This document shows, piece by piece, positions 12,001-18,000 of a DNA stretch of 30,315 nt. The position numbers are program-made. Source of the stretch: Silvanigrellaceae bacterium (GTDB taxonomy: Bacteria; Bdellovibrionota_B; Oligoflexia; Silvanigrellales; Silvanigrellaceae); NCBI GenBank assembly GCA_049423385.1, contig JBMSQQ010000040.1:1-30315 (forward strand). Reading direction: 5' to 3'. Position 1 is the stretch's first letter, and each line of letters starts with the position of its first letter.

Positions 12001-15000
12001 GTTCGATCAATGTGCACCTGATCGAGTCGATCTCTACTTTTTCACATCAGATGGAGGAGGAGTTGGCAAATTCAACAAGATGGCTTTTCTTGGACTTTTT
12101 GTCGATGAGCCTTATCGGGGCGCCCTGGCAGAGATCGCACAGAACCCTGCCTTGATCAGCAAGCTGTTGTCAGGCAGCACCAACAATTCAGGAATGTTGG
12201 AAGGTCAAGCTCAACGCGAATTCGATGCACTTGTTGTTTCAACCGAACAGCTTTTTGTTGAGGGAAAGAGTGCCAAAGCGAAACAGGGTAACGTGCCCGT
12301 GCTGCTGGAACATGCCAAACCTTCCGACCTGGGTGGAGCCGACGGCGAGCGGCAAAGCATTGTGATCCGTTCGAACCGCAGAGCACTCGTTCTCACGGCC
12401 TACGAAAAAACGCGAAAAATTTTGGATCAACAAAATCTGCTGGGTCGAACGATGATGCTTTGGAATGAGCCTGGTGAGAAAATCAGCATCTCTTCCTTGC
12501 CCACGCCCGAATCTGTGCAGACTGCTATCGAACGCATTGCGCCACGCAGGCAACATTGAATCGGTCGGAGAAGAGTTCGCCACGTCAGCGGAGTATCCGG
12601 CTGATGCAAGTGTGATGACGAGTCGAACTCGGTTGGAATCAAGTGGAGCACGTCACATGCTCTTTGCTGTATCGAAGTCATCTTCTTCGCTCACTTGGAA
12701 AGATATTCTGCAAGAAACCTGACCTCATTCTCAGATAGAGGGTCGGCGTATCGGGGCGGCATCGGGTTTTCATTGTCCTGAATACGTGCCAGGGAACGTT
12801 GCCTTACAGATCGGAATTCTGCTTCGATGTTGAAGTCCAGAAGGGGCGTTGAAGCGGGTACAAACTCGCTTTTCTTTTCTGTATGACAAGAAGCACAGCG
12901 CTCCTTCACGAGTTGTCCAACTCCATTTTGCCAAGATGGCACTGTGGCTGAGATATTGACGCCTGTTGGCGTGATGTCAGCTAATGTTTCCGCATGCGAG
13001 CATGCGGAGATTATCGCAACGAAAGATATTGCAATGATGTGTGTTCTGAAATTTCTCATCTTTCAACCTCTGCTTTTACGATGGGTGTCTGGAATCTGAA
13101 GAAGAAACGTACCGCGCTCAACCGTGAGGGAATAAAGAGTTGCGCAGCTCCAATCTGAAGTTGCGGTGAAGCCTGCCAGCCCAATGAGACCTGGCCGCCA
13201 AAGCTCCCTTCACCGTGATTTTCATTGAGGTCATTGCTGCCATCTTCAACAAGCAAAAGGTTTTGGTCCTCGGCGATAAAGAACTTGCTCGTCGCATTTC
13301 GTCTGAACGCCATAACTTCAGAATAAATAGCTGATCTCTTGTGGGTACCTGAAATCGAAAAGCCCGAGCTCGAGTTGCTGCTTTTGAAGCTGTCAGCGCT
13401 TCCTGTGGTCGCCGCACTTGAAAAACGACCCGTCAGTTGGGAGTCACCCGTTTGCTGATAAAGGCGTGCTCCCCAGATTATTCCATCCGACAAAATACCC
13501 TGTGTATCGGAGGCCTGAACTTCCAGGCCGAACTTTGTTTGTGTGAATATGCTTCCGCCGCTGAGAAAACTTCTTGATGCTTGTTCCGGAAGCCAACCTG
13601 CAAATCCGCGGATCAAAATCGAGCTCTTGAGCAGGTGGGTTGAAAAGGGTGCAATGGAAACACCCAGGGTTGGCAGCACGTGCACAGGTGCTGAGGGAAC
13701 TCCCTCGGTCTTTGACCCCACCGTTGAGTCGATATTCGGAACCAGGGTGGCAGAAGTGCCAAGGTCGAAGGTCAATTGTCCGGTTGAGGGAGCCGCAAGG
13801 CCCGCCGGAACGTCATCCAACAAGCTCGCGCTGACCTGTATCAGCCTGCGGGTTTGGTCTTTCCAGACTTCTGCAGAAGCGTTGTCACTGATGAAAAAAC
13901 TTGCCAGCAGAATGGTAACGACCCTGGTTGTGAGTCCACCAAGGCGGAAGAGTGTGGTGAGCCAAATTTGAACACCAAGAGCAGCAGAATCTTCATGATG
14001 TTTTCCATCTGAATCAAGTGCCTCTTCAAGCGAAGCGCCATTGTTCAATTGGAGTGCGATGTCCTTGCACTCGTCGGGAATGACAACGGTGTGAAGATCA
14101 CACTCGGACGATCGAAAGAGGATGTGGCCGCCGTGGGCAACAGCGGTCGGCTTTTGAGGACAATTCTCATCAGCAGGCTCCTTCCGCTGCGACGCCCGAA
14201 CAAAAACTGTGGTTGGATTCAAATGGATTTCTCCGAGTGGGGTTTCCGAAGTAGGGGTCGAGATTTCTTTATTTTCACTGGTCAGGACATTCCAGCGGGC
14301 AATGCAGAGTTCGACCATTTGGCTCAGTTCTGGGAATTCTTCATCCAGGTTCCTGGATTTCAGATATCCCGCAAGTCCCAGCAAGTTGTCCTGCAACAAC
14401 ACACCACTTAGGCCCGACGTAATGGCATAATTTGCTATCCATGCCTGAACGCGGTGGTTTCCAAATTTATCGTTCAATGGTGTCAGCAGTGTGTTCGAGA
14501 GTGTCTGTGTGATGCGTGAATAGAAGCAGTCTCTGTAGACGTCGATTTGATGGCTGAGAGATTCTTCGATCTTCAGTCTTGCTGGGTCTGTTTGGGTCCA
14601 TGGAGGAGTGTAGACGGCTTCCACGAAATGGCTTTGCACTTCGGCAAGCTCACGGGGAGTCTCTGGTTCAGTTTCAATCACATTGATTTTTCCAACACCA
14701 TCGTTCAATTCATTGATGAGCGTTGCCAAGCTGGCGTTTGGATCATCATTTTCAAGTACAATGGGATTGAGTCCAAAACGATGCAGGCAGCTTGTGAGCA
14801 GACTCCAACAATTTTCAGATACTGGCTGGTCATGGGTGTCGTGTAGCCATGAACCATGATTTGTGTGACCGGCTATATGGTACTGAGTCACCATCCAGGG
14901 CTCGAGAAATTCAAGTTCATCTTCTGTGGACGTGCCAAGGTTGAAGCTTGTGACAAGCACGTTGTTGACATCAAGAAGAATTCCACAGCCGGTTTCTCGG

Positions 15001-18000
15001 CAGAGTCGTGCAAGAAATTCCAACTCGCTCATTTCATCATGTTTGAACCGGACGTACCGGGAAAGGTTTTCCAAGCTCAAACGATGTCCAACAACACGCT
15101 GAACCTCTCTGACCCGATGAGCAACCCAGTGAAGATTTTCCTGCGTGTAGGGAAAAGGCAGGAGGTCGTAGGTTGCTTTTGCGTGAGTGCGTGTAAAGCA
15201 GAGGTGATCTGAAATCACTCGAGGTTGAACCAATTCAGACAACTCTGAAAGGCCATCAAGGTATCGCACATCCAAAGGCGAGGTGCCTGCAATGTTGATT
15301 CCCACTCCGTGCATGACAGTGCGACGGTCTTTTACAGTTTCAGCCAAATGAAAGCGGCCCCGTCCTCCGGCTTGGTGGATATAGTTGTCAGTCATGACCT
15401 CGACCCAAAGTCCTGTGCCGACATTCTTCCATTCATGATAGTGACCCGGGCGAAGTCCCATTCCGATAAAATCCGAGAGTTTCAATGATTTTCCCTCCAT
15501 CCAAGTTCGACAAGGGATACGTTTCGGGGGCGTCAAAAGTGACATGAGCATGCAAAATCATAAGGGGCTTGTCAGTGTTGTAACCAAAAACAGGCTCAAT
15601 CGAATTACCTCTCGACGGTTTCGGACATGATGTTTTGTCCAACTGATCGAAGGAGTGATACCTGATGAAAAAGACACTTGGATTCCTGGCAACGACAGCG
15701 CTTTTGGCAGCTTGCGGAAATTCAAAGACCGCACAAACCGACGACAACAAGAATACGAGTCCATTGGCCTCTGCGGATCAAAATGAAATTGTACGATGTT
15801 TTGGCATCAACAGCTGCTCATCATACGCGAAATGTGCAGTGACCGCTGCAGATGTCGAGGCAACAAAGAGAGTCTTTGGCGACAAATTTGCAGCGACCGA
15901 GCTTCATGAGTGCGCTGGTCTTGCGAAGTGCGCTGCAGCATCTGGTCAGTTGAATTGGGTTCAGGTCAGTCGCCAGGAATGCGCTCAAAAAGAGGGATTT
16001 CTGATCACAAACGCGGCCGATGGGACAAAAGTCGTCAACAAGATTTGAGGACGACGATGAACTCCCTGTGACCGGCGTTTTGACATATCAAATATCGTTT
16101 TGCGGGTGTGGGCTGATAGGCTTGCACTCGCGTGCTCGATTTTTTGGAGGAGATTTGGCGAGATGAACCCATCGACAACGCCAAACGACAGGGAGTGGCA
16201 GAATGCGCAACTTTTGTTCATGGCCTATCTATCGGGAGACGCCTCCGTTGTTAATCAACTTTTCACCTTGCTGGGACGAGCCGTCCGTGGTTTTTTCTTC
16301 GCGCGCACGAGATCTCAGGACGACAGCGACGACTTGACACAAGCGACGCTCCTTAAAATTCACCTTGCCAGGCATTCATTCGATTCGCGTTTGTCTTTGA
16401 AAACATGGATGTTTACGATCGCCCATAGAACCTTGATTGATCATTGGCGAAAGAGAGGCCGCAGGGACGCAACCGAGACTCAGGAAGACTCAGGAATTCT
16501 GAGTGATTACAGTGACCCGGAGACTATTGAACTGTCGACACTTGTCGCCCTGCGCGGGGTGCTGGAAAAGGCTCTTGAGTCGTTGAAACCATCCGATCGC
16601 TCGATCGTATATTTGGGTGTGGTGGAGGGGCTTTCCATGTCCGAATTGGCTGTTGTGGTCAACTCCACCGAGGGTGCTGTCAAGGTGAAATTGCATCGTC
16701 TGCTCAGGAACCTGAGAGGATCCTTGAGAGAGATGGAAGCCCAAGGAGACTCCCCATGAGTTTTGAACAGAATAATCTCTTTGATTATATCGCGAACGAT
16801 GTTGCTTCAGGACAGAAAATGAAGTCGTTGCGTTGGCTGTTGTCCGCAGCAGTGGTTTTGATTCCAGCGATCTTCATTGCGAGTATGGGATTCAATCCAG
16901 GCCTGACCTGGTCTGGATCATGGATGCCTTGGGCAATGCTTCTTTCGTTTGTCGCTTTGGTTCTGCTATTTGGAAGTTCTTTAGGTGGTGCTCCTCGTGT
17001 GCGCTGGATTACATTGTTATGCGCCGCAGTTCTCTTCTTTTCATTGATTTTCCCTCAGTTTGGAGATGCTTTTGATCCTGTCGTGGAAAGTGGTGGTGAT
17101 TGGCTTGACTCGCTGCATTGTTTCGGTTTTGGATTGATGATGGGTGCAGTCACATCATGTGTTTTGATTTTCACCGTTTTCCGATGGGGTCCAGTTCCGA
17201 ATTCAGGAACACGCCTTACGATGAGCCAGGTTGCGGGGCTTGCAGGAGTTGTTGGACTTTTCTTTTATTGTCCCAATTCCGATTTGGTTCATTTGTTTAC
17301 GGGGCACGGGCTACAAACTGCAATAGTTTTTGCTGGCGCTTATCTTTTCTCTCAGTTCCTGTTTTCCCGGATTATTCGTAAACAACTGGGAAAGTCCGCG
17401 GTTCAGTTCGAAAACCTGAGAAAATTCGACAACGATTAGTTCAGGTTTAGCCGCAAATTCCTGACTTCTCTGACAAGAGCGTCAATGCTGATTAATCTGC
17501 ATAACGTCTATCCTTTTAACTTTTTCGCATCTCGGTCCGCCATGTCAATTTTGATCAAAATTGAATTTTCTTGAAGGCAACGAATTTTTTGGCGCCAATC
17601 AATGCGGGTTGCCGCAGAATGTCAACGCTATCGATCATTTGGAACAGAGTCTTTTCTCGCTGAAGATGTCGAAAGGAGATTCCAAAGATAATGCATGAGC
17701 ATCCAAGCGAAGGATAATTTAATCCACAAGAGATAATGCGAAACGATTTGTGCTTCGGACCAATGATACAAATCGCGGAGCTTGTTCAAATCTCCATCGT
17801 TCTCATCGGTTGATATTGCACTTCCCCAGGGTATCCGAGAGGGATCGTTGCGAATCTGAAGCCACTGCATGGCAGCTGCACCAAAAAGCATGCCCCCGAG
17901 TGACACAACGGGGAATCGCCAAAAGTCCCAACGCAGTCGCGGTGGAAGGCGGTAGACAAAAGAAGCAACCAGGAGTGCAGAAAAAACAATTTCGCCTGTG

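Follow-up and report, generated by a model that had tools for sequence, protein, structure and literature searches.

An in-frame fusion of a bufferin maturase to a predicted outer-membrane barrel, coupled to a lipoprotein cytochrome c, in a Silvanigrellaceae genus

In the 30,315-nucleotide window that we analysed, from an uncultured Silvanigrellaceae bacterium, one open reading frame encodes a BufB-type MNIO enzyme, a BufC-like partner, an internal signal-peptide-like segment and a predicted barrel domain, here termed X. This ORF is a genuine in-frame gene fusion of two older units. Our preferred explanation, held with moderate confidence, is that the maturase was added to a module of X and a cytochrome c in a single event within one genus, and that signal peptidase I probably cleaves the product. 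The locus comprises the following features:

12691..13059, minus strand: monohaem lipoprotein cytochrome c, 122 aa; ATGA overlap with the fusion stop, CASCH, lipobox IISAC
13056..15485, minus strand: fusion ORF, 809 aa; TTG start, stop counted in; BufB, BufC, internal signal-peptide-like segment and barrel X
13059..13871, minus strand: domain X, residues 539-809 (271 aa); N-terminal helix and predicted β-barrel
13872..13928, minus strand: internal signal-peptide-like segment T520-A538, consisting of TR, hydrophobic VVTILLASFFI and SDNASA; assigned by hydrophobicity, position and conservation
13929..14639, minus strand: BufC-like partner domain (DUF2063 and C-terminal half), residues about 283-519; assigned by profile comparison
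14703..15467, minus strand: MNIO (BufB-type) domain, residues 7-261; PF05114 and NF050167
15517..15543, minus strand: ECF-type promoter-like motif GTCACT-N16-CGTAT upstream of the fusion; position kept in the other fusion genomes
15580..15605, plus strand: ECF-type promoter-like motif GTAACC-N15-CGAAT upstream of the BufA2-like gene; conserved position
15665..16048, plus strand: BufA2-like lipoprotein precursor, 127 aa, six conserved Cys; NF050166, lipobox LLAAC
16100..16759, plus strand: ECF sigma factor; Sigma70_r2 55.1 bits, Sigma70_r4_2 34.4 bits, TIGR02937 77.3 bits
16756..17439, plus strand: NrsF-like six-helix anti-sigma factor; PF06532; overlaps the sigma gene stop by 4 nt

Results

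The fusion reading frame

The stop-free frame spans 13056..15551 on the minus strand, and within it we chose the TTG at 15485 as the start because GGAGGG lies 7 nt upstream and the orthologue N-termini begin at the corresponding position, 8-9 residues ahead of GLGLRP. Searching 131 genomes, we found full-length, stop-free homologues in G111, G110 and G113 (72%, 51% and 49% identity, respectively) and a copy in G112 that is split over two contig ends, within which a TGA is the true stop codon of that gene. So fragmented a metagenome-type assembly (183 contigs, 90.6% complete) might raise the suspicion that the frame arose in assembly or sequencing, or that it is a pseudogene in decay; we consider this highly improbable, given these orthologues in four other genomes and the full length of every domain of the fusion. 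Moreover, a 15,253-base contig from run X2, possibly the source sample of this genome, covers 12600-16100 with two substitutions and no indel, and the BufC/X junction is spanned gap-free by contigs from three further runs, making four runs from two studies, all free of indels. The identical fusion protein is found on two contigs. These results reproduce what the first-pass annotation had described, namely one stop-free 809-aa ORF at 13056-15485(-) and a real fusion.

The same annotation had confined the fusion to this genus. This part stands for the 131 genomes, five of which, all of one genus, carry the fusion, and holds for those genomes only, since metagenomes yield a further seven full-length protein clusters (801-822 aa, 42-100% identity) that come without taxonomy. 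The other eight genomes of the genus have separate BufB and BufC and no fusion, and two-domain BufB-BufC fusions lacking X exist in other families of the class.

The BufB and BufC parts

According to the available text of PMC11626156, Sec-exported bufferins are modified by BufB and BufC and bind Cu2+ and Cu+. The proposed BufB-type MNIO identity of the first domain is upheld by PF05114, which scores 257.6 bits on residues 7-261 (model positions 2-256 of 263), and by 45% identity to the stand-alone BufB on contig C94 (blastp, E 3e-70); NF050167 (MNIO_BufB) reaches 251.7 bits, under its cut-off of 310. The middle domain had been called DUF2063/BufC-like. Pfam DUF2063 is not significant in the window's fusion (13.3 bits, E 0.26), and blastp aligns the fusion to the separate BufC on C94 at 25% identity (E 5e-17). 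A BufC profile matches at 13980-14639 with 91.7 bits, and hhalign of the five fusion middle domains against four DUF2063-positive BufC proteins gives a full-length match (99.6% probability, E 7e-25, 236 columns), in agreement with that call. In the alignment, the domain ends where free BufC ends, at the natural C-terminus ...GGLT.

Domain X is a predicted barrel

The AlphaFold2 model of X (pLDDT 81.2, pTM 0.80) contains a helix at residues 2-17 followed by 11 strands of at least three residues, as assigned by DSSP. No Pfam family matched X, and the Foldseek matches listed for it (best E 8e-6; TM about 0.4) consist of outer-membrane barrels or barrel domains. X is thus predicted to be an outer-membrane β-barrel, consistent with the earlier description of a barrel of an undescribed family. 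The matches include small outer-membrane barrels with an N-terminal helix: the autotransporter β-domains of NalP and EspP, FapF, the Legionella Dot/Icm porin 9nh1, Pla/OmpT and OpcA. These resemble X in barrel size and in having a helix before the first strand, but at 7-12% identity and a TM of about 0.4 the likeness is one without shown family membership; X has no passenger domain. Three observations count against the prediction: the TM of just about 0.4, a low protein-atlas recognition value (1851) and, in the fusion copies, a tail of 6-10 residues after the last predicted strand with no aromatic end. Of the 26 relatives of the window's X, six end in F; each of these is a stand-alone protein, and none is among the other four fusion copies.

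X belongs to a small family of predicted secreted barrels (117 representatives among 1.84 billion) that is not peculiar to this locus. Three stand-alone paralogues are encoded in the same genome, on contigs C30, C91 and C32, and in stand-alone X proteins an N-terminal signal peptide directly precedes a conserved W-x-x-Q-A-E-R-L-Q helix. In the X tree, the five fusion copies form one group (support 100/99), whose nearest row is the protein from G105.

The junction

The 19-residue segment ending in A-S-A is the sole strongly hydrophobic stretch in the 809 residues, and it occupies the place of the N-terminal signal peptide of stand-alone X proteins. Because the BufC C-terminus ...GGLT leads directly, without a gap, into X's own signal peptide, this signal peptide is now internal. 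The junction follows the pattern R or K (Q in one protein cluster), 11-13 mostly hydrophobic residues, A-x-A, EVWK; the first-pass annotation had noted an internal signal-like segment with a conserved ASA site, and A-x-A-EVWK is indeed kept in 5/5 genome copies and 7/7 protein clusters.

It is unusual in bacteria for a signal peptide to come after some 520 residues of an enzyme folded in the cytoplasm, which counts against our preferred explanation. In FbcH, the cytochrome b/c1 polyprotein of Bradyrhizobium japonicum, an internal signal sequence precedes the exported C-terminal protein and the polyprotein is cut into two. The fusion resembles FbcH in having a signal-type sequence before a C-terminal part that would be exported. 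Both halves of FbcH are inner-membrane respiratory subunits, whereas the fusion combines a soluble enzyme of the cytoplasm with a predicted outer-membrane barrel.

Alternatively, the segment could be an uncleaved signal-anchor, giving a single type-II protein of the inner membrane, its BufB-BufC part facing the cytoplasm and its X domain held at that membrane on the periplasmic side. Residues 515-533 just reach the score typical of a membrane helix (Kyte-Doolittle 1.63 over 19 residues); the purely hydrophobic core, however, spans just 11-13 residues, all 12 copies retain small residues at positions -3 and -1, and the signal peptides of stand-alone X proteins are ordinary. Together with the prediction of X as a barrel of the outer-membrane kind, and with the lack, after A-S-A, of a linker that could span the periplasm before X's conserved first helix begins, these features make a signal-anchor unlikely. 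We give still less credence to translation of X from an internal start, the long frame then representing a lost stop and the full-length product being minor or non-functional. G110 and G113 do contain an in-frame ATG able to start X alone (MFKLGGLTAR...), and G112 a TTG placed to give a normal signal peptide, but in the window and in G111 no ATG, GTG or TTG able to start X separately lies between the BufC end and the hydrophobic core, and no sigma-70-like promoter beyond chance is present upstream of X. At least 10 distinct sequences, at 42-76% identity, preserve the open joined frame, which argues for selection on it.

X and the cytochrome c as a module

The 122-aa lipoprotein cytochrome c had been reported as translationally coupled to the fusion; its ATGA overlap bears this out, and 5/5 fusion loci have the gene downstream. 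Haem would be attached to the protein at CASCH, and its PMPP occupies an invariant column; neither of the two cytochrome c models reaches its curated cut-off with the window's copy. Cytochrome c homologues directly adjoin stand-alone X genes in 16 of 25 loci, 15 downstream and one upstream (17 of 25 by ORF clustering). Two further X-cytochrome pairs in this genome, on C91 and C32, each show a 4-nt overlap, and G105 carries an unfused sister module with no bufferin genes nearby. Across the family the partners of X are mono- or dihaem lipoproteins, the fusion-linked module forming a distinct monohaem subtype. X and the lipoprotein cytochrome c are an older two-gene module, widespread in the class without any bufferin genes, and the cytochrome arrived with X rather than being recruited by the bufferin genes.

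A predicted complex of X with the cytochrome weakly suggests contact (score 0.35, best of three controls 0.00; partner pLDDT at least 74, with runs agreeing in at least 92% of contacts). In calibration the mark was reached by 116 of 157 solved complexes and 2 of 215 mismatched pairs; at scores of 0.60 or below, just 18 of the 157 passed, plus both passing mismatches. Outer-membrane barrels genetically coupled to c-type cytochromes are known from the porin-cytochrome pairs and fusions MtrAB and Cyc2, which X and its partner resemble in this respect, the barrel here being predicted. No sequence or fold match between these and X was found; X is small (about 11-12 strands) with an N-terminal helix, and it is paired with mono- or dihaem lipoproteins rather than decahaem proteins or an N-terminal fused haem domain. 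The fusion is the sole tie of X or the cytochrome to copper, which counts against a copper-related role for them.

The divergent genes and the promoter-like motifs

Divergent from the fusion, the annotation had placed a six-Cys BufA2-like lipoprotein and genes for an ECF sigma factor and an NrsF-like anti-sigma factor, and our searches agree. NF050166 (BufA2) matches the precursor at 22.4 bits (E 1e-4), under its cut-off of 60, and is the only or best match for 7/7 relatives; C45, C51, C57, C83, C89 and C106 are invariant in seven sequences. The sigma models match the second gene, which is kept in all five fusion loci. PF06532 (NrsF) matches the third at 15.5 bits (E 0.016, cut-off 26.8) over model positions 14-197 of 204; the protein has six hydrophobic segments, three of its four orthologues give weak NrsF matches, and in G101 a two-domain BufBC gene has a bona fide NrsF gene (69 bits) as its neighbour.

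A GTAAC-N15/16-CG(A/T)AT-type motif is found upstream of the fusion in 5/5 genomes (as GTAACC-N15/16-CGTAT at the same place in the other four) and upstream of bufA2 in the 4/4 with sequence, the others being G111, G112 and G110. The strict form TGTAACC-N14-16-CG[AT]AT has just two matches in the 3.47-Mb genome. The relaxed pattern has 33, against roughly 53 expected by chance, and since it is no rarer than chance predicts, only its conserved position counts.

It is possible, though less likely than not, that the join is functionally neutral and couples expression only, the bufferin system and the X-cytochrome pair being independent and sharing no copper or redox chemistry. X-cytochrome modules occur without bufferin genes in 16/25 loci, bufferin clusters elsewhere function without X-cytochrome (available text of PMC11626156), and the genus itself includes the eight genomes with separate BufB and BufC. 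Against such independence, the whole five-gene arrangement, with matching motifs on both operons, is kept in 5/5 genomes although identity falls to 41-49%, and the fusion-linked module is a subtype of its own.

Discussion

As far as the available parts of the two sources go, the buf1ABCD and buf2 clusters of Caulobacter vibrioides share with this locus an MNIO paired with a DUF2063-type protein, a Cys-rich precursor bearing a Sec-type signal, and control by an ECF sigma factor and NrsF-type anti-sigma factor, there in a copper regulon (PMC11626156, PMC12452194); the accessible text of PMC11626156 assigns these clusters to the SigF/NrsF regulon. The same sources describe Buf2-type precursors as six-Cys proteins, about 16% of them lipoproteins, and the precursor here resembles these. 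The locus differs from buf clusters in that BufB and BufC form one chain continuing into a predicted exported barrel, in having a lipoprotein cytochrome c in the operon, in missing all curated equivalog cut-offs, and in giving no DoxX-family match among the locus proteins scanned. Moreover, the landscape paper, in its available text, associates sigma/NrsF genes with Buf1 rather than Buf2 clusters, whereas here they lie beside a BufA2-like gene. In the accessible portion of a preprint, an engineered HvfB-HvfC fusion, in which the MNIO C-terminus is likewise joined directly to the N-terminus of the DUF2063 partner, is active and outperforms co-expression of the two proteins; it was made artificially and lacks a third part. 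MovX and ChrH are the natural exceptions named in that portion, a natural MNIO-DUF2063 fusion not being among them (bioRxiv 10.64898/2026.07.17.739211).

Of the two units, the first is a bufferin maturase, BufB with its partner BufC; we hypothesize that it acts in the cytoplasm and that its substrate is the divergent BufA2-like lipoprotein, a Sec-exported Cys-rich precursor. The second is X, the first gene of a module completed by the coupled cytochrome. The hydrophobic segment would engage the Sec translocon, X would be translocated, and signal peptidase I would cut after A-S-A538 to release mature X (EVWK...), which may assemble in the outer membrane and pair with the lipoprotein cytochrome. 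BufB-BufC would be left on the cytoplasmic side, where the signal-peptide remnant may hold it at the membrane, at least transiently, next to the export site of its substrate. The ECF sigma factor encoded at the locus, itself controlled by an NrsF-like sensor, would drive both the fusion/cytochrome operon and the bufA2-sigma-antisigma operon; sensors of this type answer copper stress in Caulobacter. On this explanation, the fusion gene encodes a single product that probably must be cut in two to work.

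Identity and distribution of the fusion gene

The assembly of this Silvanigrellaceae bacterium (183 contigs, 90.6% complete) carries the fusion gene on contig C40, in an open frame running from 13056 to 15551 on the minus strand. The genes discussed here are:

10604-12559, plus strand: 651-aa protein adjoining the cytochrome gene; its N-terminus matches patatin-like proteins only weakly (E 0.01)
12691-13059, minus strand: 122-aa monohaem lipoprotein cytochrome c
13056-15485, minus strand: 809-aa fusion of BufB, a BufC-like domain, an internal signal-peptide-like segment (T520-A538) and domain X (residues 539-809)
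15665-16048, plus strand: BufA2-like lipoprotein
16100-16759, plus strand: ECF sigma factor
16756-17439, plus strand: NrsF-like anti-sigma factor
17628-18959, minus strand: 443-aa protein, hydrophobic in its C-terminal half and bearing two zinc-ribbon motifs (PF13453, 30.5 bits); gene convergent with that of the anti-sigma factor

No counterpart of the zinc-ribbon gene turned up in the flanks at other fusion loci, and the gene with the patatin-like match is not conserved there.

The first-pass annotation started the fusion at the TTG at 15485, and this remains the best-supported start, with GGAGGG 7 nt upstream and the same start position in orthologues, which begin 8-9 residues ahead of the sequence GLGLRP. 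The frame's first ATG, at 15551, precedes a conserved promoter-like motif, and a public gene call begins 8 codons after the TTG, yielding 801 aa. The same annotation held the fusion to be real and restricted to its genus, and within the 131 genomes of the class our searches agree on both points. There the full frame reappears free of stops in G111 (72% identity), G110 (51%) and G113 (49%); in G112 the gene is split over two contig ends. A TGA noted inside the G112 gene was rejected as an internal stop, being the gene's own stop codon. When a query spanning BufC and X was used, the junction was crossed in five genomes only, all from one genus with 13 genomes in the set; a search at phylum scope covers the same 131 genomes as one at class scope. 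A collection of 5.8 billion proteins contains seven full-length clusters (801-822 aa, 42-100% identity), named only as 'DUF692 domain-containing protein' or 'UPF0276'. One 15-kb contig, which may come from the source sample, spans positions 12600-16100 with two substitutions and no indel, and contigs of three more runs extend ungapped across the junction; together they represent two studies. The DNA occurs in freshwater and marine studies, and no RNA run was listed among the sequencing runs. Because the frame recurs stop-free and independent contigs cross it without gaps, an assembly artefact or a pseudogene is very unlikely. The fusion has a solid and unusual anatomy, is restricted to a single uncultured genus, and has a putative function.

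BufB and BufC domains

The N-terminal 261 residues form a complete MNIO domain, with 45% identity to a separate BufB encoded on another contig of the genome, C94. Both profile scores reported earlier were reproduced. PF05114 (MbnB_TglH_ChrH) matches residues 7-261 at 257.6 bits, above its gathering cut-off of 25 and over model positions 2-256 of 263, and MNIO_BufB (NF050167) scores 251.7 bits, which misses the equivalog cut-off of 310 yet is the top score among five MNIO models. The locus supplies the expected company for such an enzyme: a DUF2063-type partner in the same chain, and a BufA2-like precursor gene lying divergent, 180 nt off.

The middle domain of the window's protein stays below the gathering score of PF09836 (DUF2063), at 13.3 bits and E 0.26; the model matches five of nine aligned sequences, the window's copy not among them. 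Profile comparison with hhalign aligns the five fusion middle domains to four BufC sequences, all above the PF09836 threshold, at 99.6% and E 7e-25 over 236 columns. On 13980-14639 a profile of BufC reaches 91.7 bits, and blastp against the C94 BufC gives E 5e-17. The homology to verified DUF2063 partner proteins extends over the full length of the domain, and in the alignment its end (...GGLT) coincides exactly with the end of free BufC. Searched by sequence against solved structures, the BufC-domain profile returned no match at E up to 1.

The unfused BufB (286 aa) and BufC (266 aa) genes on C94 (3039-4696, locus L065) overlap by 4 nt and have no adjoining precursor gene. The genome also encodes a second BufA2-like protein, 33% identical (contig C182, 1065-1355), and a third, more distant MNIO enzyme (contig C14, 17523-18290; PF05114 106.6 bits, 307-aa frame).

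Frames joining BufB to BufC without X also exist. The BufC profile marks six of them in the 131 genomes, and the two-domain form was confirmed in all three that we looked at, two of which (in G100 and G036) have an adjacent, co-directional BufA2-like gene. In the class genomes some 34 open frames, 500-650 aa long, begin with an MNIO domain. Only six of these match the BufC profile; in the other 28 or so, the MNIO domain may be fused to some other partner.

Domain X: family and predicted fold

No Pfam family exists for X. An exhaustive profile search of 1.84 billion sequences found a small family of 117 representatives (E no higher than 0.001), and a word-indexed homologue search with X alone as query returned one protein. 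Stand-alone members have about 250-390 aa and, judged by eye, an N-terminal signal peptide that ends in small residues and directly precedes a conserved W-x-x-Q-A-E-R-L-Q-x-V-S-A-x-L-L-D helix.

The window's X was modelled with AlphaFold2 on an alignment of 27 sequences (pLDDT 81.2, pTM 0.80); the model consists of a helix followed by 11 strands of at least three residues, as assigned by DSSP. Foldseek matched it to 40 PDB entries at E up to 0.001, with TM values of only about 0.4; the matches listed are outer-membrane barrels or barrel domains, including a Legionella Dot/Icm porin, autotransporter beta-domains, Pla/OmpT, FapF, OpcA and TodX. A C-terminal phenylalanine is present in six of 26 relatives, all stand-alone, while the fusion copies and many other X sequences have a short tail past the last strand in place of a C-terminal aromatic residue. 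A protein atlas gave only weak leads (DUF3943 and DUF6850 clusters, recognition 1851), consistent at most with barrel-like features. We read X as a probable outer-membrane barrel of an undescribed family, its fold being that of a single model.

The junction

The segment T520-A538 follows the BufC domain directly and is the sole strongly hydrophobic stretch of the chain; its position, with that of the A-S-A sequence, is exactly that of the signal peptide in stand-alone X proteins. In all five genomes and all seven clusters the junction reads GGL(T/V), with R or K within two residues (Q in one cluster), then 11-13 mostly hydrophobic residues, then A-x-A (ASA, AFA, AEA or AQA) immediately before EVWK. 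These features are arranged as in a cleavable Sec signal peptide, not as in a membrane anchor of 20 residues. For a signal peptide that is cut inside a chain, the closest precedent is the FbcH cytochrome b/c1 precursor; a literature search on bacterial internal-signal polyproteins, FbcH included, returned nothing relevant.

X might instead be translated from a start of its own. A candidate codon is present in three copies (ATG in G110 and G113, TTG in G112), and the window and G111 contain no ATG, GTG or TTG suited to the purpose. Some copies could therefore start X internally, but such initiation is not a conserved feature.

The X-cytochrome module and the origin of the fusion

The fusion stop and the cytochrome start overlap as ATGA, as had been claimed. 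The window's cytochrome has a CASCH haem motif, a distal methionine and the lipobox IISAC, and falls just below the Pfam gathering scores (PF13442, 24.9 against 27; PF00034, 20.8 against 21.3); the residues of C-x-x-C-H and the methionine of PMPP are invariant in 23 cytochrome sequences. Two more X-cytochrome pairs occur in the genome, on contigs C91 and C32, each with a 4-nt overlap and a dihaem lipoprotein cytochrome, and these paralogues exceed the Pfam threshold (58.5 and 51.8 bits, respectively). On C32 (25597-31733, locus L064) the pair is followed on the same strand by genes for proteins of 649, 258 and 506 aa without a Pfam match, the last beginning with a twin-arginine-like motif, and a HemN-like radical SAM gene lies upstream.

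Homologues of the 122-aa cytochrome are found in 33 of the 131 genomes, at coordinates that abut stand-alone X genes. Taking the best X locus per genome (25 loci), the cytochrome gene adjoins X in 16, downstream in 15 and upstream in one, always on the same strand; clustering of open reading frames puts the figure at 17 of 25 and reveals no other recurrent neighbour in more than six. The nine loci lacking it include one at a contig edge, one pseudogene and six from a single X subgroup of this genus. A recurring secreted protein of about 215-245 aa adjoins X at four of the 25 (L027, L034, L040 and L042, X loci of family f19). Among 22 cytochromes extracted, 14 dihaem and eight monohaem, a cysteine closes the N-terminal hydrophobic stretch in every one, followed in most by x-x-(Y/E)-(D/T)-L; a strict lipobox pattern matches 13.

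The closest unfused relative is in G105, where X has an ordinary signal peptide (...YAQA, then EVWDDQTERLQ) and its gene overlaps that of a monohaem 'CSKAETL' lipoprotein cytochrome, with no bufferin genes nearby. Of about 60 X matches, 27 sequences went into a tree, namely the best one of each genome and the fusions; there the five fusion copies cluster together (100/99), and the G105 sequence is nearest to them (100/99). Given this grouping and the unfused G105 module, the simplest account is that the fusion arose once, when BufBC became joined to the gene that opens a monohaem X-cytochrome module.

Structure prediction only weakly suggests that X may pair with the cytochrome in a complex. 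The pair scored 0.35 against 0.00 for the best of three controls, with a partner pLDDT of at least 74 and at least 92% of contacts agreeing between runs. In calibration the mark was reached by 116 of 157 solved complexes and two of 215 mismatched pairs; only 18 of the 157 passed with scores up to 0.60, a range that also held both passing mismatches.

The divergent operon

All five fusion genomes carry the same five-gene set (anti-sigma, sigma and bufA2, then the divergent fusion and cytochrome), in a different order in G110. In G112 a second bufA2-like copy lies downstream of the cytochrome gene (locus L049, contig C336 of that genome, 3518-3793), and the other is beside the sigma gene on the other contig.

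The first-pass annotation had reported a BufA2 match at E 1e-4 and an NrsF match at E 0.016 over nearly the whole model; both held. The precursor scores 22.4 bits with NF050166, short of the equivalog cut-off of 60, and seven BufA2-like relatives score 18-38 bits, with NF050166 the only or best model for all seven and always below cut-off. Six cysteines are invariant in seven sequences, and the precursor has a Sec-type signal with the lipobox LLAAC and a gene next to that of an MNIO enzyme. The anti-sigma protein scores 15.5 bits with PF06532, short of the gathering score of 26.8, over model positions 14-197 of 204, and three of four orthologues give weak full-length matches (13.7-15.5 bits). 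It has six hydrophobic segments, and its gene follows the ECF sigma gene directly, with a 4-nt overlap (16756-16759). A clear NrsF (69 bits) adjoins a two-domain BufBC gene in G101.

The motif GTAAC(C)-N15/16-CG(A/T)AT lies upstream of the fusion in five of five genomes and of bufA2 in all four with sequence. A relaxed form of the pattern has 33 matches genome-wide against roughly 53 expected by chance; as it is about as frequent as chance predicts, only its conserved position has weight. Consensus scans of 12400-17700 gave no sigma-70 promoters or terminators bearing on the operon beyond chance.

Comparison with known bufferin clusters and proposed function

BufB and BufC modify cysteines of Sec-exported bufferins, which chelate periplasmic Cu2+ and Cu+, and in Caulobacter the buf clusters are part of the SigF/NrsF copper regulon, according to the portions of PMC11626156 consulted. 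Bufferins are a very large RiPP class, whose clusters, in the part of the literature covered, are made up of a precursor, BufB, BufC and DoxX; no component of the outer membrane or of redox chemistry is named there. The locus probably works like a Buf2-type cluster, though every curated equivalog cut-off is missed. It differs from such clusters in its single-chain maturase, the appended exported barrel, the cytochrome c and the sigma/NrsF-like genes; the last are reported with Buf1 rather than Buf2 clusters in the covered text of the MNIO landscape study (PMC12452194). Neither an MNIO-DUF2063 nor an MNIO-barrel fusion is mentioned in the passages searched of PMC12452194 or in those of bioRxiv 10.64898/2026.07.17.739211. 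The literature searched for a barrel with a lipoprotein cytochrome in relatives yielded nothing relevant.

We propose that X would pass through Sec by means of the internal signal peptide and be cut after A538 by signal peptidase I, then reach the outer membrane and join the lipoprotein cytochrome, while BufBC would stay on the cytoplasmic face. That X and the cytochrome take any part in copper or redox chemistry is a speculative idea, drawn solely from their conserved linkage. The fullest version of the scheme, to which we give a low probability, is a polyprotein that signal peptidase I splits into two products of fixed 1:1 ratio, a cytoplasmic RiPP maturase held at the membrane and a barrel of the outer membrane. 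At the outer membrane X would then assemble with the cytochrome and the lipidated bufferin into a redox station for copper, where conversion between Cu(II) and Cu(I) through haem would be coupled to thiooxazole chelation.

The locus provides a natural single-chain BufB-BufC enzyme, the engineered equivalent of which has proved useful for biochemistry: an HvfB-HvfC fusion is described as more active than the separate proteins in the part of bioRxiv 10.64898/2026.07.17.739211 consulted. The fusion, which joins a cytoplasmic enzyme to a predicted outer-membrane protein, is also one of the rare candidates for a bacterial protein in need of a cut at an internal Sec signal, and it brings to light an unannotated family that, without a Pfam model and with its 117 representatives, has lipoprotein cytochromes as its regular partner. 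A maturase physically tied to a barrel and cytochrome module suggests a link, itself testable, between copper chelation and envelope electron transfer. If the redox station were real, it would be a dedicated envelope machine for bufferins and would give the widespread X-cytochrome module its first function.
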